Virus record (IMG/VR): IMGVR_UViG_2718218309_000002 | Length of the DNA stretch: 35,391 nucleotides | Source of the DNA: a virus | Taxonomy: Duplodnaviria; Heunggongvirae; Uroviricota; Caudoviricetes | Reading direction: 5' to 3' (one strand) | Shown here: one piece after another, positions 5,208 to 28,345 of the stretch | Layout of the letters: the number at the start of each line of letters is the position of its first letter | How positions within the stretch are numbered: position 1 is the stretch's first letter | Program-made: the position numbers and the translations under genes | Notes under the pieces: model-generated | The model's input: the letters and a program-made list of their open reading frames with translations, nothing else | Databases searched by the model: none | Told to the model about the DNA's origin: nothing

Positions 5208-5479
5208 GTATTCGTATTGAAATTGGCGAACGTTATGTCGTTACCAGTGACAGCTTTCAGTTTATTCTCCACGAGAAAAAGAGAGCTGAAAGCGGTAAAA
5301 ACGCCGGTCAGGAATGGCTGGCGGTGGTTGGTTATTACCCGAAATTAAGCCAGCTCGTTTCCGGCCTGATGCATCACGATATTCTGACCGGAAGCGCAAA
5401 GTCTTTTGCTGATTTAAACGCGCAGGTTGAGCAACTCAGCAAGCGTTGTTCAGAGGCTTTTGGCTCATATGGCCGTTAA
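5204..5479 (+). CDS. Hypothetical early protein (P2 orf83-like, 91 aa)
   Basis: ATG at 5204 overlapping the orf82 stop (ATGA). Confidence 0.7.
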   Translation: MSIRIEIGERYVVTSDSFQFILHEKKRAESGKNAGQEWLAVVGYYPKLSQLVSGLMHHDILTGSAKSFADLNAQVEQLSKRCSEAFGSYGR

Positions 5480-7736
5480 AGCCTCCGGGCGTTTTGTCCC
5501 TCCGTCAGCATTTGCCGCAGGCACCGGTAAGACGTTTACCGGTGCTTATGCATGGAACGCGCCACGCGAGGCCGTCGGGCGCGAAAGACCCCTTACACGT
5601 GACGAGATGCGTCAGGTGCAAGGTGTTTTATCCACGATTAACCGCCTGCCTTACTTTTTGCGCTCGCTGTTTACTTCACGCTATGACTACATCCGGCGCA
5701 ATAAAAGCCCGGTGCACGGGTTTTATTTCCTCACATCCACTTTTCAGCGTCGTTTATGGCCGCGCATTGAGCGTGTGAATCAGCGCCATGAAATGAACAC
5801 CGACGCGTCGTTGCTGTTTCTGGCAGAGCGTGATCACTATGCGCGCCTGCCGGGAATGAATGACAAGGAGCTGAAAAAGTTTGCCGCCCGTATCTCATCG
5901 CAGCTTTTCATGATGTATGAGGAACTCAGCGATGCCTGGGTGGATGCGCATGGCGAAAAAGAATCACTGTTTACGGATGAGGCTCAGGATCACCTGTATG
6001 GTCATGTTGCTGGCGCTGCACGAGCTTTCAATATTTCCCCTCTCTACTGGAAAAAATACCGTAAAAGACAGATGACCACGAGGCAGGCATATTCTGCCAT
6101 TGCCCGTCTGTTTAACGATGAGTGGTGGACTCATCAGCTTAAAGGCCAGCGTATGCGCTGGCATGAAGCGTTACTGATAGCTGTCGGGGAGGTCAATAAA
6201 GACCGTTCTCCTTATGCCAGTAAACACGCCATTCGTGATGTGCGTGCGCGCCGCCAGGCAAATCTGGAATTTCTTAAATCGTGTGACCTTGAAAACAGGG
6301 AAACCGGCGAGCGCATCGACCTTATCAGTAAGGTGATGGGCAGTATTTCTAATCCTGAAATTCGCCGGATGGAGCTGATGAACACCATTGCCGGTATTGA
6401 GCGTTACGCCGCTGCAGAGGGTGATGTGGGGATGTTTATCACGCTGACCGCGCCGTCAAAGTATCACCCGACACGTCAGGTAGGAAAAGGCGAAAGTAAA
6501 ACCGTGCAGCTTAACCACGGCTGGAACGATGAGGCATTTAATCCAAAGGATGCGCAGCGTTATCTCTGCCGTATCTGGAGCCTGATGCGCACGGCATTCA
6601 AGGATAATGATTTACAGGTCTACGGTTTGCGTGTCGTCGAGCCACACCACGACGGAACGCCGCACTGGCATATGATGCTTTTTTGTAATTCACGCCAGCG
6701 TAACCAGATTATCGAAATCATGCGTCGCTATGCGCTCAAAGAGGATGGCGACGAAAGAGGAGCCGCGCGAAACCGTTTTCAGGCAAAACACCTTAACCGG
6801 GGCGGTGCTGCGGGATATATCGCGAAATACATTTCAAAAAACATCGACGGCTATGCACTGGATGGTCAGCTCGATAACGACACCGGCAGGCCGCTGAAAG
6901 ACACTGCAGCGGCTGTTACCGCATGGGCGTCAACGTGGCGCATCCCGCAATTTAAAACGGTTGGCCTACCGACAATGGGGGCTTACCGTGAACTACGCAA
7001 ATTGCCGCGCGGCGTCAGCATTGCTGATGAGTTTGACGAGCGCGTCGAGGCTGCACGCGCCGCCGCAGACAGTGGTGATTTTGCGTTGTATATCAGCGCG
7101 CAGGGTGGGGCAAATGTCCCGCGCGATTGTCAGACTGTCAGAGTCGCCCGTAGCCCGTCGGATGAAGTTAACGAGTACGAGGAAGAAGTCGAGAGAGTGG
7201 TCGGCATTTACGCGCCGCATCTCGGCGCGCGTCATATTCATATCACCAGAACGACGGACTGGCGCATTGTGCCGAAAGTTCCGGTCGTTGAGCCTTTGAC
7301 TTTAAAAAGCGGCATCGCCGCGCCTCGGAGTCCTGTCAATAACTGTGGAAGGCTCGCCCGAGGTATCGTTCCAGTTATGGCCCCTACGCCATCTGAGGAT
7401 GCCTCAGCGGTGTTAAATCTTGTTGATGATGGGGTTGTCGTATGGGGTGATCCTGAAGCCATGAGGGTGCTCAGGGATGTGCTAAAACATGACGTGCCGC
7501 AACCAAATCGACACCAGCGGAGCAGGGAACCACTAAAACAGCAGGAAATCGCGCTATCAGCCAGACTGACCAAAGCAGAGCGGGAGCAGATACCGCACAT
7601 CCGTTATGACTTAGCACAGCATAATATCACACCGAAACGTTGGGAACTTGAGGCGCTGGCGCGAGGGGCGACTGTCATTTATGATGGAAAAACATTTACA
7701 TATCAGGTTGTAAATGAATGGGAAAATGAATTTTAA
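5469..7736 (+). CDS. A: Rolling-circle replication initiator gpA (about 755 aa)
   Basis: ORF-track frame 5427..7736 starts at TTG; the first ATG at 5469 gives MAVKASGRF; an HUH-type motif PHHDGTPHWHMMLF and a tyrosine-rich region YIAKYISKN are present. Confidence 0.9.
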   Translation: MAVKASGRFVPPSAFAAGTGKTFTGAYAWNAPREAVGRERPLTRDEMRQVQGVLSTINRLPYFLRSLFTSRYDYIRRNKSPVHGFYFLTSTFQRRLWPRIERVNQRHEMNTDASLLFLAERDHYARLPGMNDKELKKFAARISSQLFMMYEELSDAWVDAHGEKESLFTDEAQDHLYGHVAGAARAFNISPLYWKKYRKRQMTTRQAYSAIARLFNDEWWTHQLKGQRMRWHEALLIAVGEVNKDRSPYASKHAIRDVRARRQANLEFLKSCDLENRETGERIDLISKVMGSISNPEIRRMELMNTIAGIERYAAAEGDVGMFITLTAPSKYHPTRQVGKGESKTVQLNHGWNDEAFNPKDAQRYLCRIWSLMRTAFKDNDLQVYGLRVVEPHHDGTPHWHMMLFCNSRQRNQIIEIMRRYALKEDGDERGAARNRFQAKHLNRGGAAGYIAKYISKNIDGYALDGQLDNDTGRPLKDTAAAVTAWASTWRIPQFKTVGLPTMGAYRELRKLPRGVSIADEFDERVEAARAAADSGDFALYISAQGGANVPRDCQTVRVARSPSDEVNEYEEEVERVVGIYAPHLGARHIHITRTTDWRIVPKVPVVEPLTLKSGIAAPRSPVNNCGRLARGIVPVMAPTPSEDASAVLNLVDDGVVVWGDPEAMRVLRDVLKHDVPQPNRHQRSREPLKQQEIALSARLTKAEREQIPHIRYDLAQHNITPKRWELEALARGATVIYDGKTFTYQVVNEWENEF

Positions 7737-7827
7737 TGATATTAAGATACTAGGAACTAAAGAGGTATATACCCGCGATAATTGAAGGTGCTTGATTTCG
7801 AAGATAATCAGGTTCATGTTAACAGCT

Positions 7828-7971
7828 ATGAATATTGAGTTGACCGTAGAACAAAAAATCGCCATCGAAGCATTGCAACGAAAAAGTCGTGATCTCCATA
7901 TCCGCGATCGGGTCTGCTGCGTATTGCTTTCTTCTGAAAGCTGGTCAATCACAATGATTGCACCATCCTAA
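7828..7971 (+). pseudogene. Possible remnant of an IS630-family transposase N-terminus (47 codons)
   Basis: ATG at 7828 encodes MNIELTVEQKIAIEALQRKSRDLHIRDRVCCVLLSSESWSITMIAPS then stop; the pattern resembles N-terminal HTH regions of IS630-type transposases as I recall them; no downstream catalytic region. Confidence 0.35.
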
Positions 7972-8110
7972 TATATCCATAAAACAACCGCTTTGTGACA
8001 CCTGAATGACTGGACTGGTAGTAAAAAAGTAAACTTGAAACTGGTATTGAGTTTTAAGTGCGCGGGTTTTCGGTAGGGAGGTGACACTCATTAAATTAAA
8101 AGTTTCTGGT

Positions 8111-8140
8111 AAGGGGGCGGGGCCCCCTTTATAGGTTTTT
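8111..8140. terminator. GC-rich palindrome plus T-run: putative bidirectional intrinsic terminator between the A operon and the cargo gene
   Basis: AAGGGGGC-GGG-GCCCCCTT (8-bp stem, 3-nt loop) followed by ATAGGTTTTTT on the plus strand; the minus-strand side is also AT-rich; sits where the two transcription units converge. Confidence 0.45.
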
Positions 8141-11071
8141 TCAGGAATGAATAACCTTTCTAACCTGGAAGCTATCATTATGAGATGGGATTATTTCTCC
8201 TTTGAAAATAAGCCCTTCTCTCAAATACTGCCTGCTTTCAGAGGAAAATATTGTTACGTGGAAAAATATATCTACAGGGAGTTTGTCACAACTACAGAAT
8301 CCATATCCTCGTTGTGGAAAGTATCTTTTAATGATGCACTCCCCACTGATTGCTTCAACGTTTGGTGATTCTTTGCTATAAATATGACTAATCACCATGC
8401 CTATCTCTGTTCTGGAAATGTCACACATCAAAGTGTCGCCATCAACGACGGAATCTATATTATATTGTTTTAATAAATTTTGAGAAATATCGATGGGCCC
8501 ATCAATGTCATTAACAATTAGATATCCAAGGCCACGCTCAACATCATAGCTATCTACAATTGCCCTAGCATGTTTTTTTACGATGCCTAGTTTATAAATG
8601 TCGCCAAGAGTATTCTCTGGTGGTTCGCTTTCATCATATCTATTTTGTTTAAAGACTAATAGTCGATTGATTAACTCTTTTTGGCATTCATATTTTTCAT
8701 GTGTTATCTCATTGCTAATATAAACAGAGTCTTCAGATATTAAATACTCTAGAAATAGATTTCTAATATTGTACATTTTAGAGATGTGATTGCCTTTGGA
8801 AGCATAAGTATCTTTTATTTTATTTGCGATAGAACTGTCGGTGATCGCTGTTGTTAATGCCATTTGATAGAAGTAAACGCTATTACGAGATGCGAGCTTT
8901 AAATGTGCTCTACCTTTATAAGAAATTGCTAATTTCTGATTTGATGAGAGTGTAGTTGATGACATATCATAGGGTTCTATTAATTTTGCCATAATTAAGC
9001 TCTCTAAAGCTTTATCGACAGCTAGTTCTGTTGCTCCTAAAGCATCGAAATAACTGCTGATAGATTGTACGCTTAAATGTTTATCCTCAATGCTTTTTCC
9101 AGGCACTTGAATGGAGTTAAGTAAAGTAAGGATTCTTAACGCTTGCAATGGTGATTGTCTTACTTGACTATCAACTTGGAATATAGGATATATTTCTGGG
9201 ATGTCACCATTTTTATAAACTTCATAATCACCGCGAATTAACGCGTCCATGAAGCGAGTGAAATTTATCGAAGGAAGTTCACCACTAATATAAGATTTTA
9301 TCAAGTCCTCTATTTTAATTGCAGGGGATGTGATTATTCTTTTTGATAATAATAATGTTCTGCGTATATTATAGTTGGCAAGCTCACCAAGAGTTTGTGA
9401 TGTGTAATCATGATTCACAAAAATATTTTCAATCACTTTAGAAAATTTATTTATATCTTCAATGGAAATTTTAATACCTTTTGATAAAAGATAGCTTTTC
9501 TTTTGTTCATTAGTATCTTTATTGTTAAGTTTTGATGTGATGAAGTTAATTCGCTTTCTGAATACTTCCCGTGGGGACGGAGTTGGTAGAAAAAATGATT
9601 TTGATTGATAGATGCTAAATATATCTGTCTTGGAGAAAATCCAAGCTGATTTATCTGTCACGGGGAAAATAACAAGGCAGTGTTTAATGTTTTTTTTAAT
9701 TGAATTGCTAAACTGGAAGACTTTTGTTTTAAAGTCAAGTGTGAATTCATCAGTGTTATCTACGACTATTATTGGAAGCATTTTTCTATTGCTTACAACA
9801 TTGTGAAGGATGCGTTTTAAATATCCCTCTCGATCATTTTCAACAGCTTCATCTAAATAACGTCCAAATTTTTCCTTGAACTCATCTTTACTTCTATTGT
9901 AAAGAGCTGCGTCCGCTCCTCTTGATTTTCTTTTATATTCATTGTGATAAAGTCCAAGGAGATCATTCCATTCAGGTACGCCGTCCTTGTAAAGCTGGGT
10001 CTCAAGGGTTTTTATTATTTCTTCAGTCATCCAATCTAGAACTGTATCTTCTCGCCCTGTAGCTTCTAAGCAGTTTATTTTAATAAGTAAGCATCGTTCT
10101 CTAATCGTTTTATTAAGGGTGCGACTGAAAAAACGGTCTAAAAAAGTCGACTTCCCAGAGCCAGTTGGTCCAACTATAAAAACGGATTGTTCTGACTCTA
10201 GATTTATATCAGACTCAATATTTGACATTATTAAATCAGAAAGCTCATCTCCAACTTTATTTTTATTATAGTTTATATTTGACAAGACGCTAGTTGTTAT
10301 TTTCTCAAGTGAATAGTCTGCAATTCTACTTTCATATGATTCAACAAAACATTCCATCATCATCTCGTCATCTCCCTCTAATCGAGAGAAGAAACTAGAG
10401 AATACCCTTTCTAAATCATAAGCCATATCACTTTTTCTTGTTATTTTTATATCAGATCCAATGATTGGGGCTGTTAATTCATTATTTAACAATAAACGTT
10501 TGTTGTGAATATCATCAAATATAGTGTTATACAATCTTTTGTTAAATGCTTCTTTTGATAATAATTCATAGAACACGCTAAATGATTTTTCGACTGCCTC
10601 GATACTAGGGAATACAATTGCCTCTTTACTTTTGAAGTTTTCACCAGGTATAAATGTTTTGAATATTACCCAACATAACCCATCAGTTAGAATAGAAAGA
10701 GGTATGCCATTTGGCGATGCGTAGCTAAATGCCTGGTTAATTCCTGTCTCGCATTTCTTTAAAGCAGAACCTGATATTTTTAAATGTCTTACAGTGTTTT
10801 TTTGAGCTGTTTCAACTTCTAAAATGCCGATTTTTTTGGCTTCGACAACAAAGGAGGGATGATCATCAGTGGAAAGAATGTAGTCAGAGAATCCATTGTC
10901 ATGGGCAGTTTCACAAGCAATATCAGAGTGCATCCATCCAAGCGTCTCTGTTAATATGCGAGTTATGATTTGAATTTTAGCATCTTCTTCTGATTGGATT
11001 TTTGTGATGTTATGATTAACATCACTCATAATTTTTAAGAATTTTTTTTCGCTGGAATCTAAACTAGTCAT
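8141..11071 (-). CDS. Candidate anti-phage defence protein (976 aa): N-terminal PD-(D/E)xK nuclease-like domain, central P-loop NTPase, C-terminal cold-shock-like OB domain
   Basis: Single uninterrupted ORF in the A-to-cos slot. Residues 55-80 GFSDYILSTDDHPSFVVEAKKIG fit a PD-(D/E)xK / HsdR-N-like nuclease core; residues 301-309 GPTGSGKST form a Walker A (nt 10145..10171); residues 434-442 IIVVDNTDE are a candidate Walker B; residues about 908-976 (nt 8144..8350) resemble a cold-shock domain. Strongly AT-rich relative to the flanking phage genes. Confidence 0.85.
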   Translation of the reverse strand: MTSLDSSEKKFLKIMSDVNHNITKIQSEEDAKIQIITRILTETLGWMHSDIACETAHDNGFSDYILSTDDHPSFVVEAKKIGILEVETAQKNTVRHLKISGSALKKCETGINQAFSYASPNGIPLSILTDGLCWVIFKTFIPGENFKSKEAIVFPSIEAVEKSFSVFYELLSKEAFNKRLYNTIFDDIHNKRLLLNNELTAPIIGSDIKITRKSDMAYDLERVFSSFFSRLEGDDEMMMECFVESYESRIADYSLEKITTSVLSNINYNKNKVGDELSDLIMSNIESDINLESEQSVFIVGPTGSGKSTFLDRFFSRTLNKTIRERCLLIKINCLEATGREDTVLDWMTEEIIKTLETQLYKDGVPEWNDLLGLYHNEYKRKSRGADAALYNRSKDEFKEKFGRYLDEAVENDREGYLKRILHNVVSNRKMLPIIVVDNTDEFTLDFKTKVFQFSNSIKKNIKHCLVIFPVTDKSAWIFSKTDIFSIYQSKSFFLPTPSPREVFRKRINFITSKLNNKDTNEQKKSYLLSKGIKISIEDINKFSKVIENIFVNHDYTSQTLGELANYNIRRTLLLSKRIITSPAIKIEDLIKSYISGELPSINFTRFMDALIRGDYEVYKNGDIPEIYPIFQVDSQVRQSPLQALRILTLLNSIQVPGKSIEDKHLSVQSISSYFDALGATELAVDKALESLIMAKLIEPYDMSSTTLSSNQKLAISYKGRAHLKLASRNSVYFYQMALTTAITDSSIANKIKDTYASKGNHISKMYNIRNLFLEYLISEDSVYISNEITHEKYECQKELINRLLVFKQNRYDESEPPENTLGDIYKLGIVKKHARAIVDSYDVERGLGYLIVNDIDGPIDISQNLLKQYNIDSVVDGDTLMCDISRTEIGMVISHIYSKESPNVEAISGECIIKRYFPQRGYGFCSCDKLPVDIFFHVTIFSSESRQYLREGLIFKGEIIPSHNDSFQVRKVIHS

Positions 11072-11126
11072 TTCTTATCATCCAAAGTGATGTAAGTAAG
11101 TTACGGATAAATTCTTATGTATTGAG

Positions 11127-11154
11127 ATTGTAAGGTAATTAGCCATGAGTTCAA
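11127..11154 (-). promoter_or_regulatory. Putative sigma70 promoter for the cargo gene (-35 TTGAAC, 16-nt spacer, -10 TACAAT on the minus strand)
   Basis: Read on the minus strand: TTGAAC-N16-TACAAT about 55 nt upstream of the start codon at 11071; by-eye match to consensus only. Confidence 0.3.
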
Positions 11155-11283
11155 GTAGTTAGTTTGCATATCCTTGCGTGAAAATGCATCTGTCGTCTGA
11201 AATTGGTTTGCTGACACAAACCCAGCCGCCGCTGGGCAGGGTTTGAAGCGCACCTGCATTAAAACCGCCCCGTGAAGCGGGCA

Positions 11284-11302
11284 GGCGAGGCGGGGAAAGC
11301 AC
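11284..11302. other. cos site: 19-nt P2 cohesive-end sequence GGCGAGGCGGGGAAAGCAC
   Basis: Exact match to the P2 cohesive-end sequence as I recall it; located downstream of Q, where P2 has cos. Confidence 0.8.
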
Positions 11303-11444
11303 TGCGCGCTAGCGGTGGTGCTGATTTTATTTTTTCAGCGTCTGAGCGCGTCGTGATGGCGTTTAGAGTGTGCGCCGGGGCGTTGGTGTGTCTGCGGGGT
11401 GTTTTGTGCGGTGGTGAGCGTGTGAGGGTGTGATGACGGGGTGT

Positions 11445-11466
11445 AAAAAAGCCGCCCGCAGGCGGC
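11445..11466 (-). terminator. Intrinsic terminator of the P-Q operon
   Basis: On the minus strand, just after the Q stop: GCCGCC-TGCG-GGCGGC hairpin followed by TTTTTT. Confidence 0.6.
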
Positions 11467-11471
11467 GATGT

Positions 11472-12506
11472 TCAGCCGTTGTCAGTGTCCAGTGAGTAGT
11501 TTTTAAAGCGGATGACCTCCTGACCGAGCCAGCCGTTTATTTCCCGAATCCTGTCCTGTAACGGGATAAGCTCATTGCGGACAAAGACCTTTGCCACTTT
11601 CTCAATATCACCCAGCGACCCGACGTTCTCCGGCTTGCCGCCCATCAACTGAAAGGGGATGCGGTGCGCGTCCAGCAGGTCAGCGGCGCTGGCTTTTTTG
11701 ATATTAAAAAAATCGTCCTTCGTTGCGACTTCACTGAGCGGGATAATTTTAATGCCGTCGGCTTTCCCCTGTGGGGCATAGAGAAACAGATTTTTAAAGT
11801 TGTTGCGGCCTTTCGACTTCACCATGTTTTCGCGGAGCATTTCGATATCGTTGCGATCCTGCACGGCATCAGTGACGTACATGATGTATCCGGCATGTGC
11901 GCCGTTTTCGTAATACTTGCGGCGGAACAGCGTGGCCGACTCATTCAGCCAGGCAGAGTTAAGGGCGCTGAGATATTCCGGCAGGCCGTACAACTCCTGA
12001 TTAATATCCGGCTCCAGCAGGTGAAACACGGAGCCGGGCGCGAAGGCTGTCGGTTCGTTGAAGGACGGCACCCACCAGTAAACATCCTCTTCCACCCCAC
12101 GGCGGGTATATTTTGCCGGTGAGGTTTCCAGTCTGATGACCTTACCGGTGGTGCTGTAACGCTTTTCCAGAAACGCATTACCGAACACCAGAAAATCCAG
12201 CACAAAGCGGCTGAAATCCTGTTGTGAAAGCCACGGATGCGGGATAAATGTCGAGGCCAGAATATTACGTTTGACGTAAATCGGTGAGCTGTGATGTACG
12301 GCAGCACGCAGGCTTTTTGCCAGACCGGTAAAGCTGACCGGTGGCTCATACCATCTGCCGTTACTGATGCACTCGACGTAATCCAGAATGTCACGGCGGT
12401 CGAGTACCGGCACCGGCTCACCAAAGGTGAATGCCTCCATTTTCGGGGCGCTGGCGGTCATTGTTTTTGCCGCAGGTTGCGGTGTTTTCCCTTTTTTCTT
12501 GCTCAT
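11472..12506 (-). CDS. Q: Portal protein gpQ (344 aa)
   Basis: 344 aa, the P2 gpQ length; first gene after cos on the leftward packaging operon; start overlaps the P stop. Confidence 0.95.
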   Translation of the reverse strand: MSKKKGKTPQPAAKTMTASAPKMEAFTFGEPVPVLDRRDILDYVECISNGRWYEPPVSFTGLAKSLRAAVHHSSPIYVKRNILASTFIPHPWLSQQDFSRFVLDFLVFGNAFLEKRYSTTGKVIRLETSPAKYTRRGVEEDVYWWVPSFNEPTAFAPGSVFHLLEPDINQELYGLPEYLSALNSAWLNESATLFRRKYYENGAHAGYIMYVTDAVQDRNDIEMLRENMVKSKGRNNFKNLFLYAPQGKADGIKIIPLSEVATKDDFFNIKKASAADLLDAHRIPFQLMGGKPENVGSLGDIEKVAKVFVRNELIPLQDRIREINGWLGQEVIRFKNYSLDTDNG

Positions 12507-14278
12507 CAGTAAAACTCCAGAATGGTGGATGTCAGCGGGGTGCTGATACCGGCGGTGAGTGGCTCATTTAACAGGGCGTGCATGGTCGCCCAGGCGAGGT
12601 CGGCGTGGCTGGCTTCCTCGCTGCGGCTGGCCTCATAGGTGGCGCTGCGTCCGCTGCTGGTCATGGTCTTGCGGATAGCCATAAACGAGCTGGTGATGTC
12701 GGTGGCGCTGACGTCGTATTCCAGACAGCCACGGCGGATAACGTCTTTTGCCTTGAGCACCATTGCGGTTTTCATTTCCGGCGTGTAGCGGATGTCGCGC
12801 GCGGCAGGATAGAACGAGCGCACGAGCTGGAACACGCCGACACCGAGGCCGGTGGCATCAATACCGATGTATTCGACGTTGTATTTTTCGGTGAGTTTGC
12901 GGATGGATTCCGCCTGGGTGGCAAAGTCCATGCCTTTCCACTGGTGACGCTCAAGTATTCTGAATTTGCCACCGGCAACCACCGGCGGTGCCAGTACCAC
13001 GCATCCGGCGCTGTCGCCACGGTGTGACGGGTCGTAACCAATCCAGACCGGGCGTGAGCCGAACGGATTGGCGGCAAACGGCGCATAGTCTTCCCATTCT
13101 TCCAGCGTGTCGACCATGCAGCGTTGCAACTCCTCGAACGGGAACACCGACGCCTTGTCGTCAACAAATTCACACATGAACAGGTTTTTAAAATCGTCGG
13201 CGCTGTTTTCGCGTTTGAGCTGCTCAATGTCGAACAGCGTGCAGCCGCCTTTCAGGGCATCCTCAATGGTGACAATCTGCCGCCACTGGCCGTCCGCACA
13301 GAGAAGACCTCCGGCAAGTGCGTTATGACTGACGTCGATTTCCACGCGTTCAGCGGCGCTGGCGCGTCCCCGGTTAAACAGTTCACCCGACCAGAACGGG
13401 TAGGCGTCGTGCGCCAGCGTGGACGGGGTGGAGAAATAGGTCGAACGCAGGTGACTCTGTGAGGCCATACCTGATGCCACCTTACGCAGTACCTGAAAAT
13501 TCGGGATCCAGAAAATCTCATCGACGTACAGGTCGCCGTTATGGCTCTGCGCGGTGTTGGAGTTGGTGCCGAGAAAAATCAGTTTTGCGCCGTTATTGCC
13601 CAGGATAATCGGGTCACCGGTCAGGTCAACGTCAACCAGCCGGGCAAAGGCGATGATGTATTCGCGGAACACATACGCCTGCGTTTTACTGGCCGATAGA
13701 AAAATCTGGTTATGACCGGTTTTCAGGGCGCGCAGCAGCGCCTCGCGGGAAAAATAAAACGTCGCGCCAATCTGGCGGGATTTCAGGATATCGCGGATGC
13801 GGTGCTCAAGCCCGGCGCGATACCAGTGCAACTGATATTCGAAAGACTGCTCAAAGAAAATCTGCTCCAGCTTTTCGATAGCCTCGTCACTGAAAAAATT
13901 CTTTTTCGGTTTGCGCCGCCCGCCTTTGTTGCGGTTAGCGATGTTCGGATTAAGGTCTGCCTCGTTGCCGGTCTGGCTGTAGCGGTTTACCCGTGCCAGT
14001 CGTTCAATCTGGCGTCCGAGCAGGTCAATTTCCTTGAAGTCACCGCCGGTTTTCTGCGGTTTGATGATGAGCTGGGTCAGCCGCGCTTCCAGACTCATTT
14101 CGACACGGCTGATGGGGGCAACGCTGTCCCAGCCGTCGCGCTGTTTCCAGCTCTGCACTGTCGGGCGTTTCATCTGCAACATGGCGGCAATCTGCGGCAC
14201 GGAAAATCCCTGCCAGTACAGCAGCGCCGCCTGACGACGCGGGTCGTGTAAAAGAGTGGTGTCTGTGGTGATGGTCAT
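12506..14278 (-). CDS. P: Terminase large subunit gpP (590 aa)
   Basis: ORF-track frame 12506..14308 starts at TTG; internal ATG (codon 11) gives MTITTDTTLLHDPRRQ and 590 aa, the P2 gpP length. Confidence 0.93.
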   Translation of the reverse strand: MTITTDTTLLHDPRRQAALLYWQGFSVPQIAAMLQMKRPTVQSWKQRDGWDSVAPISRVEMSLEARLTQLIIKPQKTGGDFKEIDLLGRQIERLARVNRYSQTGNEADLNPNIANRNKGGRRKPKKNFFSDEAIEKLEQIFFEQSFEYQLHWYRAGLEHRIRDILKSRQIGATFYFSREALLRALKTGHNQIFLSASKTQAYVFREYIIAFARLVDVDLTGDPIILGNNGAKLIFLGTNSNTAQSHNGDLYVDEIFWIPNFQVLRKVASGMASQSHLRSTYFSTPSTLAHDAYPFWSGELFNRGRASAAERVEIDVSHNALAGGLLCADGQWRQIVTIEDALKGGCTLFDIEQLKRENSADDFKNLFMCEFVDDKASVFPFEELQRCMVDTLEEWEDYAPFAANPFGSRPVWIGYDPSHRGDSAGCVVLAPPVVAGGKFRILERHQWKGMDFATQAESIRKLTEKYNVEYIGIDATGLGVGVFQLVRSFYPAARDIRYTPEMKTAMVLKAKDVIRRGCLEYDVSATDITSSFMAIRKTMTSSGRSATYEASRSEEASHADLAWATMHALLNEPLTAGISTPLTSTILEFY

Positions 14279-14451
14279 GAATACCTCGCCGTGATGAATA
14301 CACGGCAAGGCTACTGAGTCGCGCCCCGCGATTCGCTAAGGTGCTGTTGTGTCAGTGATAAGCCATCCGGGACTGATGGCGGAGGATGCGCATCGTCGGG
14401 AAACTGATGCCGACATGTGACTCTTCTAATCACTATTCAGGACTCCTGACA

Positions 14452-15306
14452 ATGGCAAAAAAAGTCTCAAAATTCTTTCGTATCGGCGTTGAGGGTGACA
14501 CCTGTGACGGGCGTGTCATCAGTGCGCAGGATATTCAGGAAATGGCCGAAACCTTTGACCCGCGTGTCTATGGTTGCCGCATTAACCTGGAACATCTGCG
14601 CGGCATCCTGCCTGACGGTATTTTTAAACGTTATGGCGATGTGGCCGAACTGAAGGCCGAAAAGATTGATGACGATTCGGCGCTGAAAGGCAAATGGGCG
14701 CTGTTTGCGAAAATCACCCCGACCGATGACCTTATCGCGATGAACAAGGCCGCGCAGAAGGTCTACACCTCAATGGAAATTCAGCCGAACTTTGCCAACA
14801 CCGGCAAATGTTATCTGGTGGGTCTGGCCGTCACCGATGACCCGGCAAGCCTCGGCACGGAATACCTGGAATTCTGCCGCACGGCAAAACACAACCCCCT
14901 GAACCGCTTCAAATTAAGCCCTGAAAACCTGATTTCAGTGGCAACGCCTGTTGAGCTGGAATTTGAAGACCTGCCTGAAACCGTGTTCACCGCCCTGACC
15001 GAAAAGGTGAAATCCATTTTTGGCCGCAAACAGGCCAGCGATGACGCCCGTCTGAATGACGTGCATGAAGCGGTGACCGCTGTTGCTGAACATGTGCAGG
15101 AAAAACTGAGCGCCACTGAGCAGCGCCTCGCTGAGATGGAAACCGCTTTTTCCGCACTTAAGCAGGATGTGACTGACAGGGCGGATGAAACTAGCCAGGC
15201 ATTCACCCGCCTGAAAAACAGTCTCGACCACACCGAAAGTCTGACCCAGCAGCGCCGCAGCAAGGCCACCGGTGGTGGCGGTGACGCCCTGATGACGAAC
15301 TGCTGA
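14452..15306 (+). CDS. O: Capsid scaffolding protein gpO (284 aa)
   Basis: ORF-track frame 14386..15306; ATG at codon 23 gives MAKKVSKFF and 284 aa (P2 gpO length); divergent from P. Confidence 0.9.
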   Translation: MAKKVSKFFRIGVEGDTCDGRVISAQDIQEMAETFDPRVYGCRINLEHLRGILPDGIFKRYGDVAELKAEKIDDDSALKGKWALFAKITPTDDLIAMNKAAQKVYTSMEIQPNFANTGKCYLVGLAVTDDPASLGTEYLEFCRTAKHNPLNRFKLSPENLISVATPVELEFEDLPETVFTALTEKVKSIFGRKQASDDARLNDVHEAVTAVAEHVQEKLSATEQRLAEMETAFSALKQDVTDRADETSQAFTRLKNSLDHTESLTQQRRSKATGGGGDALMTNC

Positions 15307-15364
15307 CCGGCGTCAGTCAGTCCGGGAAAACCTTCACGATTAACCCTTAATTTCAGGAAAAACT

Positions 15365-16438
15365 ATGCGCCAGGAAACCCGCTTTAAATTTAATGCCTAC
15401 CTGTCCCGTGTTGCCGAACTGAACGGCATCGACGCCGGTGATGTGTCGAAAAAATTCACCGTTGAACCGTCGGTCACCCAGACCCTGATGAACACCATGC
15501 AGGAGTCCTCTGACTTTCTGACCCGCATCAACATTGTGCCGGTCAGCGAAATGAAAGGGGAAAAAATTGGCGTCGGTGTTACCGGCTCCATTGCCAGCAC
15601 CACCGACACCGCCGGTGGCACCGAGCGTCAGCCGAAGGACTTCTCGAAGCTGGCGTCAAACAAGTACGAATGCGACCAGATTAACTTCGATTTTTATATC
15701 CGCTACAAAACGCTGGACCTGTGGGCGCGTTATCAGGATTTCCAGCTCCGTGTCCGTAACGCCATTATCAAACGCCAGTCCCTTGATTTAATCATGGCCG
15801 GTTTTAACGGCGTGAGGCGTGCCGAAACCTCTGACCGCAGCAGCAATCCGATGCTGCAGGATGTGGCGGTCGGCTGGCTGCAGAAATACCGCAATGAAGC
15901 CCCGGCGCGCGTGATGAGCAAGGTCACTGACGAGGAAGGGCACACCACCTCTGAGGTCATCCGCGTGGGTAAGGGCGGTGATTATGCCAGCCTTGATGCA
16001 CTGGTGATGGATGCGACCAACAACCTGATCGAACCGTGGTATCAGGAAGACCCTGACCTTGTGGTGATAGTGGGACGTCAGTTACTGGCGGACAAGTATT
16101 TCCCCATCGTTAACAAGGAGCAGGACAACAGCGAAATGCTGGCCGCTGACGTCATCATCAGCCAGAAACGCATCGGTAACCTGCCAGCGGTACGCGTCCC
16201 GTACTTCCCGGCGGATGCGATGCTCATCACGAAGCTGGAAAACCTGTCCATCTACTACATGGATGACAGCCATCGCCGCGTGATTGAGGAAAACCCGAAA
16301 CTCGACCGCGTGGAGAACTACGAGTCAATGAACATTGATTACGTGGTGGAAGACTACGCCGCCGGTTGTCTGGTGGAAAAAATCAAGGTCGGTGATTTCT
16401 CCACACCGGCTAAAGCGACCGCAGAGCCGGGAGCGTAA
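15365..16438 (+). CDS. N: Major capsid protein gpN (357 aa)
   Basis: 357 aa, the P2 gpN length; follows O. Confidence 0.95.
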   Translation: MRQETRFKFNAYLSRVAELNGIDAGDVSKKFTVEPSVTQTLMNTMQESSDFLTRINIVPVSEMKGEKIGVGVTGSIASTTDTAGGTERQPKDFSKLASNKYECDQINFDFYIRYKTLDLWARYQDFQLRVRNAIIKRQSLDLIMAGFNGVRRAETSDRSSNPMLQDVAVGWLQKYRNEAPARVMSKVTDEEGHTTSEVIRVGKGGDYASLDALVMDATNNLIEPWYQEDPDLVVIVGRQLLADKYFPIVNKEQDNSEMLAADVIISQKRIGNLPAVRVPYFPADAMLITKLENLSIYYMDDSHRRVIEENPKLDRVENYESMNIDYVVEDYAAGCLVEKIKVGDFSTPAKATAEPGA

Positions 16439-25192: not shown

Positions 25193-25720
25193 ATGCAGCA
25201 TTTAAAGAACATTAAGTCAGGTAATCCCAAAACAAAAGAACAATATCAGCTAACAAAGAATTTTGATGTTATCTGGTTATGGTCCGAAGACGGAAAAAAC
25301 TGGTATGAAGAAGTAAGTAATTTTCAGGAAGACACAATAAAGATTGTTTACGATGAAAATAATATTATTGTCGCCATCACCAGAGATGCTTCAACGCTTA
25401 ATCCTGAAGGTTTTAGCGTCGTTGAGGTTCCTGATATTACTGCCAACCGGCGTGCTGATGACTCTGGTAAATGGATGTTTAAGGATGGTGCCGTGATTAA
25501 GCGGATTTATACGGCAGACGAACAGCAGCAACTGGCGGAATTACATAAGGCAGCTTTGCTTTCCGAAGCTGAATCCGTGATTTTGCCGCTGGAGCGCGCG
25601 GTCAGGCTGAATATGGCAACAGATGAGGAGCGTAGTCGACTGGAGGCATGGGAACGCTATAGTGTTCTGGTCAGTCGTGTGGATCCTGCAAATCCTGAAT
25701 GGCCGGAAATGCCGCAATAA
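25193..25720 (+). CDS. G: Tail fibre assembly chaperone gpG (175 aa)
   Basis: 175 aa immediately after H; AT-rich N-terminal half and GC-richer C-terminal half. Confidence 0.9.
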
Positions 25721-25935: not shown

Positions 25936-26835
25936 ATGAGTGGTATTCGTATAACTCAGGCTATTGATAACAATCAGATTTTAGTAAATGTAAATACTTT
26001 TAATTATAGTGTTAATCCCTATCCACTCAAATGTCCTGACCCAAATTGCTCTGCTCATTTGGTGTATGTCAAAAGCCATATTCGTCGGAGTTTTAATAAA
26101 ACCTTGCATATCCCCGCCTTCTTTAGACTGGAAAAAAATTTCACGCATGACAAATTATGTCAGTATGGAACTTCAGGATTGAATACAATTTATGCAAGTG
26201 ATTCCAGTCATGATATCAGCCGTGCGCTTGCCACAGGTAATAATATATTCCGTATACATATACTCGATGAAGATGATATCTCTAAATTAAGCAGAAAAGC
26301 TGCAGCTATGCAGGCAAATCCACCTTCTGATACTACAGACCGCGTTTATGTCAAGAGAGGTCGGAAAGCCCCCTATGTGAAGAACATGGATAGCTTACGG
26401 GAGATCTATGAATATGGAAAAGCTCACCCCAACAAGAGAAACAGCATAAAAATTGTTACTGGAACAAGTACTGTAACGTGGTCTGATTTTTTCTATGAAA
26501 CAACGCAGTTAGAACGATTGTCAACTTACCTCCAGAAAGTAAAAATAGCTCAGGTTGCTGTAATTATGAAAGTGCATGTGGCGAGAATCCCTATGGCGAA
26601 ATTTAATTATCGACACTTCATTGAAGGTTCGCCAATGAGGATAAAAGGGGGCTTTAATATATATCCTACGATTCAATTAGGAAATGTTACTCCAAAATTA
26701 TTTCCGTTGAGTAGCATTGTCATGGTACTCGGTAAATTTACTATTCCAACAAATAGAAAAATGATAATGGATCCAACATTTGAGCGTGAAGTCAGAACCA
26801 TAGTTTCTAGTGAAGAGCAAGTGCTAATTCTTTGA
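25936..26835 (+). CDS. Hypothetical cargo protein in the Z/fun slot (299 aa), candidate defence or exclusion factor
   Basis: ATG at 25936 preceded by GGAGGAG; AT-rich; lies between G and FI where P2 carries Z/fun; no recognisable catalytic motif or transmembrane segment; contains a CPDPNCSAH element. Confidence 0.75.
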   Translation: MSGIRITQAIDNNQILVNVNTFNYSVNPYPLKCPDPNCSAHLVYVKSHIRRSFNKTLHIPAFFRLEKNFTHDKLCQYGTSGLNTIYASDSSHDISRALATGNNIFRIHILDEDDISKLSRKAAAMQANPPSDTTDRVYVKRGRKAPYVKNMDSLREIYEYGKAHPNKRNSIKIVTGTSTVTWSDFFYETTQLERLSTYLQKVKIAQVAVIMKVHVARIPMAKFNYRHFIEGSPMRIKGGFNIYPTIQLGNVTPKLFPLSSIVMVLGKFTIPTNRKMIMDPTFEREVRTIVSSEEQVLIL

Positions 26836-27154: not shown

Positions 27155-28345
27155 ATGAGTGACTATCATCACGGCGTGCAGGTGCTGGAGATTAACGACG
27201 GCACCCGCGTCATTTCCACCGTATCCACCGCCATTGTTGGCATGGTCTGCACGGCCAGCGATGCGGATGCGGAAATCTTCCCCCTCAATAAACCGGTGCT
27301 GATTACCAATGTGCAGAGTGCAATTGCAAAGGCCGGTAAAAAAGGCACGCTGGCGGCGTCGTTGCAGGCTATCGCCGACCAGTCAAAACCGGTCACCGTT
27401 GTCGTACGTGTGGAAGACGGCACCGGCGAAGACGAAGAAACGAAACTCGCGCAGACCGTTTCCAATATCATCGGCACCACTGACGAAAACGGTCAGTACA
27501 CCGGACTGAAGGCCCTGCTGGCGGCAGAGTCGGTAACCGGTGTTAAACCGCGTATTCTCGGCGTGCCGGGACTGGACACCAAAGAGGTGGCTGTTGCACT
27601 GGCATCAGTCTGTCAGAAGCTGCGCGCTTTCGGGTATATCAGCGCATGGGGCTGTAAAACCATTTCCGAGGTGAAAGCCTACCGCCAGAATTTCAGCCAG
27701 CGTGAGCTGATGGTCATCTGGCCGGATTTCCTCGCATGGGATACGGTCGCCAGTACCACCGCCACCGCGTATGCCACCGCCCGTGCGCTGGGTCTGCGCG
27801 CTAAAATGGACCAGGAGCAGGGCTGGCATAAAACGCTGTCCAACGTCGGGGTGAACGGTGTTACCGGCATCAGCGCGTCCGTATTCTGGGATTTGCAGGA
27901 GTCCGGCACCGATGCTGACCTGCTTAACGAGTCAGGCGTCACAACGCTGATTCGCCGTGACGGTTTCCGCTTCTGGGGTAACCGTACCTGCTCTGATGAT
28001 CCGCTGTTCCTCTTTGAAAACTACACCCGCACCGCGCAGGTGCTGGCCGACACGATGGCTGAGGCGCACATGTGGGCGGTGGACAAGCCCATCACCGCAA
28101 CGCTGATTCGCGACATCGTTGACGGCATCAATGCCAAATTCCGTGAGCTGAAAACAAACGGCTATATCGTGGATGCGACCTGCTGGTTCAGCGAAGAGTC
28201 CAACGATGCGGAAACCCTCAAGGCCGGAAAACTGTATATCGACTACGACTATACCCCGGTGCCTCCTCTTGAAAATCTGACCCTGCGCCAGCGCATTACC
28301 GATAAATACCTGGCAAATCTGGTCACTTCGGTTAACAGCAATTAA
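27155..28345 (+). CDS. FI: Tail sheath protein gpFI (396 aa)
   Basis: 396 aa, P2 gpFI position and length. Confidence 0.96.
   Translation: MSDYHHGVQVLEINDGTRVISTVSTAIVGMVCTASDADAEIFPLNKPVLITNVQSAIAKAGKKGTLAASLQAIADQSKPVTVVVRVEDGTGEDEETKLAQTVSNIIGTTDENGQYTGLKALLAAESVTGVKPRILGVPGLDTKEVAVALASVCQKLRAFGYISAWGCKTISEVKAYRQNFSQRELMVIWPDFLAWDTVASTTATAYATARALGLRAKMDQEQGWHKTLSNVGVNGVTGISASVFWDLQESGTDADLLNESGVTTLIRRDGFRFWGNRTCSDDPLFLFENYTRTAQVLADTMAEAHMWAVDKPITATLIRDIVDGINAKFRELKTNGYIVDATCWFSEESNDAETLKAGKLYIDYDYTPVPPLENLTLRQRITDKYLANLVTSVNSN

Follow-up and report, generated by a model that had tools for sequence, protein, structure and literature searches.

A nuclease-NTPase protein with tandem cold-shock domains in the tin/old slot of a P2-like prophage, a candidate NLR-like anti-phage protein

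To our knowledge, recognition of phage proteins is common to all the bacterial Avs and NLR-like proteins that have been characterised. The Avs members with nuclease effectors (Avs3, Avs4 and Avs7; AVAST) are single polypeptides in which an N-terminal nuclease, of the Mrr or Cap4 type in Avs3/4, is followed by a central P-loop NTPase, by helical and winged-helix parts and by C-terminal recognition modules. Avs proteins are carried in prophage hotspots and are typically longer than 1,400 aa, and they include forms with TPR-type sensors of 400 aa or more. Avs7, which has a Cap4 nuclease, is a nuclease-STAND DNase activated by oligomerisation. SAMD9/9L and the bacterial Avs9 are STAND proteins of about 1,400-1,600 aa in which a nuclease effector of the AlbA_2 type is followed by a P-loop NTPase and, at the C-terminus, an OB fold, with SIR2, TPR and SAM domains in addition; SAMD9 senses nucleic acids. 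In Lee et al. 2026, STANDs are described as substantially larger than typical defence proteins, recognition is extended to the greater part of the core phage proteome, and the defending STAND families Avs22-24 and bNACHT20 are without an identified protein trigger. One or two cold-shock domains (CSDs), predicted to be nucleic-acid-binding or sensing modules, have been added to PD-(D/E)xK-family defence enzymes in the CoCoNuT proteins CnuB/CnuC (PMC11090510), which belong to McrBC-type GTPase systems with two or more genes and coiled coils, and in Shedu type 1G, whose nuclease is DUF4263 and which has no NTPase. Finally, P2 itself carries tin and old between gene A and cos; both products exclude competing phages, and Old is a single-gene unit in which an ABC-type ATPase is joined to a TOPRIM nuclease. 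Validated defence systems recur in this slot (Rousset et al. 2022, PMC9122126).

The locus analysed here lies in a P2-like E. coli prophage, within a window (the whole stretch of DNA that was studied) of 35,391 nt. In agreement with a first-pass annotation of the same DNA, the P2 tin/old slot was found to hold one large AT-rich gene on the strand opposite to gene A. The gene has the replication endonuclease A (5427-7736, +) on one side and cos with the portal gene Q (11472-12506, -) on the other, and it is complete, with an ATG start and 976 aa plus a stop codon. The features of the slot are as follows:

8141..11071, minus strand: the 976-aa open reading frame, RefSeq 'AAA family ATPase' (WP_001755156.1; common allele WP_032286573.1)
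11127..11154, minus strand: candidate sigma-70 promoter TTGAAC-16-TACAAT, about 55 nt 5' of the ATG, a consensus match only
11284..11302, plus strand: the 19-mer GGCGAGGCGGGGAAAGCAC, which we take to be P2 cos, the right-hand limit of the cargo slot
8111..8129, no strand assigned: GC-rich hairpin, 12 nt past the stop codon of the gene

The GC content of the gene was 33.5%, compared with about 52-58% in the phage genes on either side, a composition foreign to the prophage. The candidate promoter, which would be the gene's own, lies downstream of the portal-gene terminators, and the hairpin scored as a terminator for plus-strand transcripts coming from gene A, its minus strand being without a T-run. 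The gene is a single-gene unit, and neither a methyltransferase or specificity gene in its neighbourhood nor BREX partner genes at the locus were found. A 59-aa ORF at 7792-7971, considered as an IS630-type HTH remnant, had no support from Pfam or PADLOC.

The family profile matched about 573 representative clusters, with full-length homologues spread over many phyla, and since the frame also runs for 976 codons in 33%-GC DNA, it is far beyond chance. In E. coli the gene is rare: of 5426 complete genomes, 7 carried it. Recurrence at the same position, which the first-pass annotation had proposed to look for, was observed: all the E. coli genomes checked had the gene between A and cos/Q, as the window does, and 30 occurrences in the P2 hotspot have been published (PMC9122126). 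The carriers of the family were prophages, small integrative islands and plasmids. The Citrobacter homologue was on a small integrase/AlpA/Rep island, the one from Yersinia was at a prophage end and adjoined RelB/ParE, that of Methylomonas adjoined SIR2 and integrases, and that of V. cholerae was a lone insertion among housekeeping genes; plasmid homologues accounted for 30 records, 15 of them conjugative. No homologue was found by tblastn in 50,697 deposited phage genomes, and the evidence for carriage by phages therefore rests on prophages. A distant Klebsiella relative lacking the CSDs adjoined P2-type portal genes and, by eye, matched seed #111 of Lee et al. 2026. Its identity with Rousset system #23 (HSDR_N_2/KAP_NTPase/NB-ARC) was rejected, as BLASTP with the available fragment was not significant.

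The first-pass annotation had described the protein as unrecognised and outside any named family. This was an overstatement, because a near-identical protein had already been listed twice. Rousset et al. 2022 (PMC9122126, Table S5B) have it as system #106, 'BpuSI_N/NB-ARC/S1-like', an 'NLR-like protein', and this entry differs from the protein in the window by one residue; Lee et al. 2026 include the allele WP_032286573.1, as #208, among their 656 curated defence-related STAND seeds. No experimental record was found for the protein or any homologue in the literature covered, which stopped short of the cloned-STAND list of Lee et al. 2026. Neither the tables of tested systems in Rousset et al. 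(PMC9122126) nor the supplements of Vassallo et al. and of the 2026 P2/P4 preprint include the protein, and the accession WP_001755156 was not found in the literature searched. PADLOC v2.0.0 matched no characterised defence system and gave no hit to an AVAST, bNACHT or NLR model, the best match being mad8 (E 3e-5) in the P-loop region. NCBIfam matches were at the level of the P-loop, with no characterised system among them, and phmmer against PDB sequences returned CSD and P-loop fragments only. The family profile gave confident CSD matches in the PDB (YB-1 and CspA, E about 1e-8) and no nuclease or NTPase relative there. A PHROG without known function, phrog_14719, matched residues 1-832.

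Next, the protein was divided into the following parts, all encoded on the minus strand:

10502..11071, minus strand: PD-(D/E)xK nuclease domain of the HSDR_N / BpuSI_N type, residues 1-190 (alignment, profiles and fold)
10202..10501, minus strand: helical connector with a low-confidence linker (269-290), residues 191-290 (alignment and model)
9575..10201, minus strand: P-loop NTPase core, residues 291-499 (motifs)
9152..9574, minus strand: helical lid/arm domain, residues 500-640, with the invariant motif LPTPxP...R507
8921..9151, minus strand: winged-helix domain, residues 641-717, with the invariant H665
8597..8920, minus strand: short bundle of five helices, residues 718-825, where the CSD-less relatives end
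8363..8596, minus strand: cold-shock domain 1 (CSD1), residues 826-903 (profile, homologue matches and CspA alignment)
8144..8362, minus strand: cold-shock domain 2 (CSD2), residues 904-976, with RNP1 and RNP2 kept

The nuclease call made at first pass was borne out. In an alignment of 40 sequences, with homologues from diverse bacteria at 45-59% identity, the residues D63...E77-A78-K79 were invariant, and HSDR_N was matched in 23 of the 40 homologues, above the Pfam cutoff in several (P0053, P0097 and P0009). The predicted model of this domain (pLDDT 83) had its strands and helices in the expected alpha-beta-beta-beta-alpha-beta order, and its nearest folds were HsdR 3h1t (E 7.5e-4), DrdV 7lo5 and BpuSI 3s1s. 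From the alignment and the model, the N-terminus is a restriction-type PD-(D/E)xK nuclease domain of the HsdR/BpuSI kind, with the catalytic triad intact and presumably active. The connector that follows carries an invariant CFVExxESRxAD motif at residues 241-252. Membership of the type I HsdR proteins was rejected, as the nuclease domain alone is shared and there are no SF2 motor and no HsdM or HsdS partners.

Similarly, the P-loop NTPase was recovered with the motifs already reported for it, namely the Walker A GPTGSGKS(T) at 301-309 (K307) and a Walker B with D438 and D441/E442 in IIVVDNTDE at 434-442, and the residues of both were invariant in the same alignment. The sensor-1 region is at T472/D473, and a helical insert of about 95 residues is present between beta2 and the Walker B strand. 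The invariant H665 of the winged helix may, by analogy, be equivalent to the nucleotide-sensing His of STAND WHDs. The protein has the AAA+ base, lid and C-terminal winged helix of the ORC/Cdc6 fold, and its NTPase was structurally nearer ORC/Cdc6 than solved STANDs; TIGR02928 (orc1/cdc6), however, scored 22.5 bits against a cutoff of 181.3, so that there is no family-level membership by sequence. The modelled NTPase, lid and winged helix together thus appear to stand at the structural boundary between ORC/Cdc6 and STAND proteins. Sequence similarity to ORC/Cdc6, TnsC/MuB and BREX BrxC was marginal, and none of these has a fused nuclease or CSDs, unlike the protein described here. A ResIII match was limited to the P-loop (E 0.09), with no helicase or translocase motor.

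The three-part description given at first pass had missed the winged helix (about 641-717), the helical bundle (718-825) and one of the CSDs: its single C-terminal CSD, the segment of about 910-960, is real, but there are two, the other one at 826-903. In the CspA alignment, CSD1 was degenerate, with RNP1 KGFGF replaced by RGLGY and RNP2 VFVHF by IDISQ; this domain is canonical in the family consensus, and the aromatic residues of RNP1/RNP2 have been lost in the E. coli copy. CSD2 retained RNP1 RGYGF (921-925) and RNP2 IFFHV (935-939), and its PF00313 score in this copy was 18.8 bits, under the cutoff of 27. Both stretches scored 57-59 bits in homologues, and PF00313 was matched in 36 of the 40 family members (best E 1e-18). 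The CSD1 region of homologues also matched PF08206 OB_RNB, the CSD of RNase II/R, and two tandem CSDs are the arrangement found in RNase II/R. Profile searches detected no TPR or repeat family after the WHD, where about 90 aa of helices and the two CSDs are all that is present. We concluded that the C-terminus, as judged from these profiles and motifs, consists of a short helical bundle and two CSDs. On the whole, Pfam and the model folds upheld the nuclease, NTPase and cold-shock (OB) calls, partly at family level (HSDR_N, and CSD in homologues). Among the relatives compared, forms with zero, one and two CSDs had one core in common, and most of the best-matching complete relatives had no CSDs and ended after the helical bundle. 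Because the conserved core occurs without CSDs in most of those relatives, and because CSD1 of E. coli is degenerate, the CSDs appear to be an accessory module, and not the core or a universal sensor. Variation of this kind is a modularity typical of immune STANDs.

When these parts were compared with the systems described above, several features were shared with the nuclease-effector Avs proteins: one polypeptide, an N-terminal effector (HSDR_N-type PD-(D/E)xK) fused to the NTPase, helical and winged-helix domains, C-terminal modules and carriage in a prophage hotspot, for a protein itself published as 'NLR-like'. Unlike the Avs proteins, it matched no Avs HMM, it has an effector of the HsdR/BpuSI type and not the Cap4 nuclease of Avs7, it carries about 90 aa of helices and two CSDs in place of a large TPR-type sensor, and at 976 aa it is far smaller. 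The first-pass annotation had set an Avs/STAND match against its own reading; the match found was partial, at the level of architecture, with no characterised Avs family involved. With SAMD9/9L and Avs9 the protein shares the order of nuclease, NTPase and OB fold, but it differs from them in effector, accessory domains and length, and domain profile searches gave no sequence or profile match. The addition of CSDs to a PD-(D/E)xK-family enzyme is common to CoCoNuT CnuB/CnuC and Shedu type 1G. CoCoNuT/McrBC membership was rejected, with no McrB or DUF2357 match and a single-gene locus, and the DUF4263 domain set of Shedu was not detected by Pfam or PADLOC. P2 Old and Tin have the genomic slot in common with this gene and Old its single-gene ATPase and nuclease make-up; the exclusion of competing phages known for both is presumed for the 976-aa protein. 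As noted at first pass, there is no resemblance beyond this. OLD family membership was rejected, as no AAA_15, AAA_21, TOPRIM or OLD match was found in Pfam, NCBIfam or PADLOC and the fold is different throughout, and identity with Tin was rejected on domain content.

Collectively, we favour, at a probability of roughly 0.55, the reading that this single polypeptide acts in anti-phage immunity as an NLR-like (Avs-type) protein and is moron cargo of the P2 tin/old hotspot. The defence role proposed at first pass remains plausible in view of the slot, the domain content and the independent published listing. In the uninfected cell, the protein would be an autoinhibited monomer, probably ADP-bound. 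The C-terminal half (winged helix, helical bundle and CSDs) would read a cue of infection and so permit NTP-dependent oligomerisation, which would gather the N-terminal nuclease domains for DNA cleavage, and the destruction of phage DNA, and probably of host DNA too, would result in abortive infection or growth arrest, after the manner of Avs3, Avs4 and Avs7. The tandem CSD may be an accessory binder of single-stranded nucleic acid, with CSD2 the functional one in this copy; the tandem would either provide the trigger (phage ssDNA or RNA) or make it more precise, or else keep the enzyme attached to its substrate. The narrower proposal, that phage ssDNA or RNA is itself the trigger through the tandem CSDs and that NTP-dependent assembly fires the restriction-type nuclease, is one we hold only tentatively and consider rather unlikely. 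The first-pass scheme, in which the CSD senses and the NTPase gates the nuclease, is still conjecture, and its CSD half is weakened by the CSD-less relatives and the degenerate CSD1. On the side against an Avs-type protein are the missing Avs/bNACHT match in PADLOC, the tiny 'sensor' after the WHD, the degenerate CSD1 and the lack of a homologue in deposited phages.

A doubtful, though not negligible, alternative is a direct ATP-dependent restriction-like enzyme, and not an abortive NLR-like sensor, with survival of the host. Here, the ORC/Cdc6-type AAA+ with its winged helix and helical insert would load or oligomerise on DNA, like ORC, TnsC, MuB and BrxC, the CSDs would bind single-stranded regions (injected ends, forks, and rolling-circle or recombination intermediates), and the HsdR-type nuclease would cut the bound foreign DNA. 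Restriction enzymes of types I, IIG and IIL indeed have a nuclease of this kind, the insert of about 95 aa is where initiator-clade AAA+ proteins would carry a DNA-contacting motif, hardly any distinct sensor domain is present in the CSD-less relatives, and the database names of some homologues are 'type I' or 'predicted type IV restriction endonuclease'. However, self/non-self discrimination is left unexplained, since no methyltransferase or specificity partner was seen in the E. coli, V. cholerae, Citrobacter, Methylomonas and Yersinia neighbourhoods; the TIGR02928 score (22.5 bits against 181) and the absence of a helicase or translocase motor, the ResIII match being P-loop only, also speak against it, and two published analyses put the NTPase among STANDs (Rousset et al., PMC9122126; Lee et al. 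2026).

We consider it highly unlikely that the gene has no defence role and is either of benefit to the phage or element, in replication or partition via the ORC-like ATPase, or a decaying passenger. ORC/Cdc6-like folds are those of replication proteins, some homologues lie among housekeeping genes, as in V. cholerae, and the literature covered gave no phenotype for the protein or its homologues. Nevertheless, the reading frame is unbroken and shows strong purifying conservation, its nuclease and NTPase motifs being unchanged among sequences of 45-59% identity. The gene occurs sporadically and on mobile elements, the slot is one where validated defence systems recur (PMC9122126), and gene A already provides P2 with a replication initiator. 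Most improbable of all is an RNA-directed system in which the tandem CSDs, laid out like those of RNase II/R, trap single-stranded RNA from phage or host so that transcripts are degraded or sensed, in parallel with the RNA targeting predicted for CSD-bearing CoCoNuT systems (PMC11090510): CSDs are generally RNA-binding and CSD1 of homologues matches OB_RNB, but CSDs also bind ssDNA (PMC11090510), the nearest folds of the nuclease domain are dsDNA restriction nucleases, most of the best-matching complete relatives lack CSDs, and profile searches of the protein and its homologues detected no RNase-type domain.

PADLOC, which gave no match to a described system, and RefSeq, with its 'AAA family ATPase', miss the gene, and this part of the presumed defence content of the P2 hotspot goes unannotated. 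A compact nuclease-NTPase with C-terminal CSDs of the canonical single-strand-binding kind is an easily cloned candidate for nucleic-acid sensing, with the CSD-less and single-CSD relatives as natural controls. If sensing through the CSDs is true, no earlier member of the bacterial Avs-like world would have sensed nucleic acid, the protein would be a small bacterial parallel to sensing of the SAMD9 type, and the natural series of forms with zero, one and two CSDs would be a built-in experiment on a sensing modality added to a STAND/ORC-like switch. The position between ORC/Cdc6 AAA+ initiators and STANDs could, moreover, show how immune switches arose from DNA-loading ATPases.

The target gene occupies the cargo slot of a P2-like prophage, and the locus contains the following features.

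8141..11071, minus strand: target ORF of 976 aa with an ATG start (ORF listing)
11154-11127, minus strand: candidate sigma-70 promoter of the target gene (consensus match)
11284-11302: 19-nt cos sequence, between the target gene and the portal gene

The ORF listing and the E. coli C2 chromosome, where a sequence 100% identical to the window is present, agree with the first-pass annotation, which had placed this ORF between A and cos in the P2 cargo slot. Its neighbours in that chromosome are annotated "replication endonuclease" (gene A) on one side and "phage portal protein" on the other, and the terminase, scaffold, and capsid genes come after the portal gene; the 19-mer is the cos sequence of P2. 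The gene is rare (7 out of 5426 complete E. coli genomes), and it occupied the identical position in the three further complete E. coli genomes inspected. The region has 32-35% GC, versus about 52-58% in the adjoining phage genes. Transcribed in the opposite direction to A, and with its candidate promoter downstream of two terminator-like hairpins closing the portal transcript, the gene looks like an independent moron-type unit.

Within 7700-11500, 10 terminator-like hairpins were found versus 2.7 expected, about four times expectation; those at 8111-8129 and 11265-11284/11451-11466 flank the cargo gene on both sides, one directly touching the cos site. Between gene A and the target gene are 400 bp that contain a 59-aa ORF (7792-7971, plus strand), whose sequence (…ELTVEQKIAIEALQRKSRDLHIRDRVCCVLLSSESWS…) resembles by eye the HTH at the N-terminus of IS630-type transposases; neither Pfam nor PADLOC gave a match backing this, and the resemblance, if it holds, would point to what is left of an earlier insertion or exchange. 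For the same interval, RefSeq has a different small hypothetical ORF in one strain. A 299-aa ORF of about 38% GC (25936-26835, plus strand) is flanked by G (tail-fibre assembly, 25193-25720) and FI (tail sheath, 27155-28345), the position of the P2 Z/fun slot, the second cargo hotspot of the phage; it had no match in Pfam or PADLOC and is a candidate uncharacterised cargo or defence gene. At the E. coli C2 locus (NZ_CP010117.1, L001, 20162-21757), the prophage integrase adjoins yegR/yegS and the gat operon, so the P2-like prophage is integrated near yegR.

The protein was analyzed with an alignment of 40 full-length homologues (45-59% identity), drawn from a set that spans diverse bacteria (Gammaproteobacteria, Alphaproteobacteria, and a Flavobacterium among them), and with a good AlphaFold2 model built from it (mean pLDDT 81, pTM 0.65). 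The nuclease and P-loop NTPase proposed by eye were both confirmed. Residues 1-190 form the alpha-beta-beta-beta-alpha-beta core of a PD-(D/E)xK nuclease with D63, E77, and K79 invariant in the alignment, and HSDR_N (PF04313) was detected in 23 of the 40 members, several above the Pfam cutoff. Modelled on their own (pLDDT 83), residues 1-270 were nearest, among solved folds, to the nuclease domains of restriction enzymes: type I HsdR (3h1t, E 7.5e-4), type IIL DrdV (7lo5), and type IIG BpuSI (3s1s). Residues 291-499 are the NTPase, with Walker A at G301-T309 (K307), Walker B D438 with D441/E442, and a sensor-1 region at T472/D473, all invariant in the same alignment; AAA_22 scored above the Pfam cutoff, and AAA_16, ATPase_2, nSTAND_NTPase5, NACHT, and KAP_NTPase gave weak scores. 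Between beta2 and the Walker B strand, the chain carries a helical insert of ~95 residues; the folds closest to the NTPase are ORC/Cdc6, TnsC, MuB, and BrxC. A helical lid (500-640), a winged helix with invariant His665 (641-717), and a five-helix bundle (718-825) follow. PDB sequence and family-profile searches found no solved structure of any relative.

At the C-terminus, the proposed cold-shock fold was recovered, but in two cold-shock domains (CSDs) rather than one. Family profile positions 829-899 (CSD1) match YB-1 and CspA at about 1e-8, and positions 922-974 (CSD2) match UNR-type CSDs; homologues scored 57-59 bits on PF00313 over two matched stretches, and in these proteins PF08206, the RNase II/R OB domain, hits CSD1 as well. 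The RNP1/RNP2 aromatics are missing from CSD1 in the E. coli copy and in Vibrio and Plesiomonas relatives (KGFGF to RGLGY; VFVHF to IDISQ), and CSD2 of the E. coli copy retains RGYGF and IFFHV. Judged by motifs, at least one of the two CSDs is canonical in the window protein. When 1.84 billion cluster representatives were searched exhaustively with the family profile, 573 matched at E≤1e-30.

Forms among the 150 matches listed (of 573); approximate hand tally of apparently complete proteins
Two-CSD form: about 965-985 aa; whole profile covered; ~12 among the matches listed
One-CSD form (homologue P0159): 894 aa; profile positions 1-894; 1 among the matches listed
CSD-less form: about 800-870 aa; profile coverage ends at ~760-826; ~45 among the matches listed

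The homologues P0135 and P0142 have the same nuclease and NTPase motifs and no CSD. Forms with zero, one, or two CSDs and common motifs indicate that the tandem CSD is a module appended to a core of ~810 aa that is conserved. Because most relatives, among complete proteins in the matches listed, are without CSDs, these are not a universal sensor of the family.

In the loci examined, homologue neighbourhoods were mobile or defence-flavoured, and the gene was always a single unit without a conserved partner. It was found in a small integrase/AlpA/Rep/resolvase island in three different chromosomal settings in Citrobacter, at a prophage end beside RelB/ParE in Yersinia, adjoining SIR2 and integrases in Methylomonas, as a lone insertion in V. 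cholerae, and on 30 plasmids, half of them conjugative. In loci L005-L007 (Citrobacter freundii and a metagenome, about 6370-16270), a ~9 kb element has the homologue P0086 as its main cargo and also encodes an integrase, AlpA, a replication protein of the Rep_ORF2-G2P type, and a resolvase; its right junction is constant (beside a formate/nitrite transporter gene) and its left flanks are three different ones, and the element resembles a satellite- or PICI-like mobile island whose neighbouring content varies. Moreover, Klebsiella aerogenes NCTC10006 (LR134124.1; L014, 4986-7436) encodes a distant relative of 816 aa that has no CSD (22% identity, E 7e-19); its annotation is "Predicted type IV restriction endonuclease", and by eye it matches seed #111 (OWF11469.1) of Lee et al. 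2026. It directly follows fragmented P2-type terminase and portal genes, which suggests that this slot type also serves another, distantly related family of nuclease-NTPases.

The protein, named "AAA family ATPase" in RefSeq, had been called unrecognised, and this was wrong. Rousset et al. 2022 (PMC9122126) list it in Table S5B as system #106, with Pfams "BpuSI_N/NB-ARC/S1-like", 30 P2-hotspot occurrences, and the note "NLR-like protein"; the representative, compared over residues to ~400, is the window protein bar Y267H. Table S5A has the entry "AAA_22 WP_032286573", the common allele, and in Table S5A/B (P2 hotspot), nuclease, P-loop NTPase, and OB-fold combinations recur, fused and split. 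In Lee et al. 2026 (bioRxiv 10.64898/2026.01.04.697583), residues 273-448 of WP_032286573.1 are seed #208 of 656 curated defence-related STAND seeds. No experimental test of the protein was found in the tested-system tables of Rousset et al., nor does it occur in the supplements of Vassallo et al. or of a 2026 P2/P4 preprint, and PADLOC v2 has no model for it. Old and Tin, already set apart by eye, type I HsdR holoenzymes, and McrBC were unrelated to it in domain and PADLOC/NCBIfam profile searches. The protein is thus catalogued already, and its distinguishing features are the ORC-like NTPase and the tandem-CSD tail. Collectively, the initial interpretation was partly supported, with domains and slot right and the proposed CSD sensing of phage nucleic acid weakened.

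The protein has an intact restriction-type nuclease, an intact NTPase with lid and winged helix, and two CSDs, and its gene is a single unit residing in a hotspot and on mobile elements; we regard an anti-phage or anti-MGE role as quite probable. The main rival to an Avs-like mechanism would be a restriction-like enzyme that is loaded on DNA and acts directly: the closest NTPase folds all load on DNA, and CSD-less forms are almost without a separate sensor, but no modification or specificity partner accounts for self/non-self distinction, and we regard this reading as doubtful. A nucleic-acid-triggered bacterial NLR-like sensor is similarly tentative, and a non-defence role is improbable. An RNA-directed system, for which the RNase II/R-like tandem CSD and the CoCoNuT precedent speak, is very unlikely given a nuclease fold nearest to restriction-enzyme domains.

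By analogy, the window protein would work most like nuclease-effector Avs proteins, and both groups already label it that way; however, it has no TPR-type sensor and no Avs profile matches it, and by structure its NTPase falls at the boundary between the ORC/Cdc6 and STAND types. SAMD9/Avs9 is a precedent for nuclease, P-loop NTPase, and OB fold within one protein, and CoCoNuTs and Shedu type 1G for CSDs on defence nucleases. To an Avs-like, NTP-gated DNase mechanism, modelled on nuclease-bearing Avs proteins (Avs7), we assign a probability of about 0.55. The resting protein would be autoinhibited, a cue would act on the C-terminal half, and NTP-dependent oligomerisation would bring the nuclease domains together to cut DNA, with abortive infection as the likely outcome; the CSDs would most plausibly add single-stranded nucleic-acid binding, as a (co-)trigger or substrate tether.
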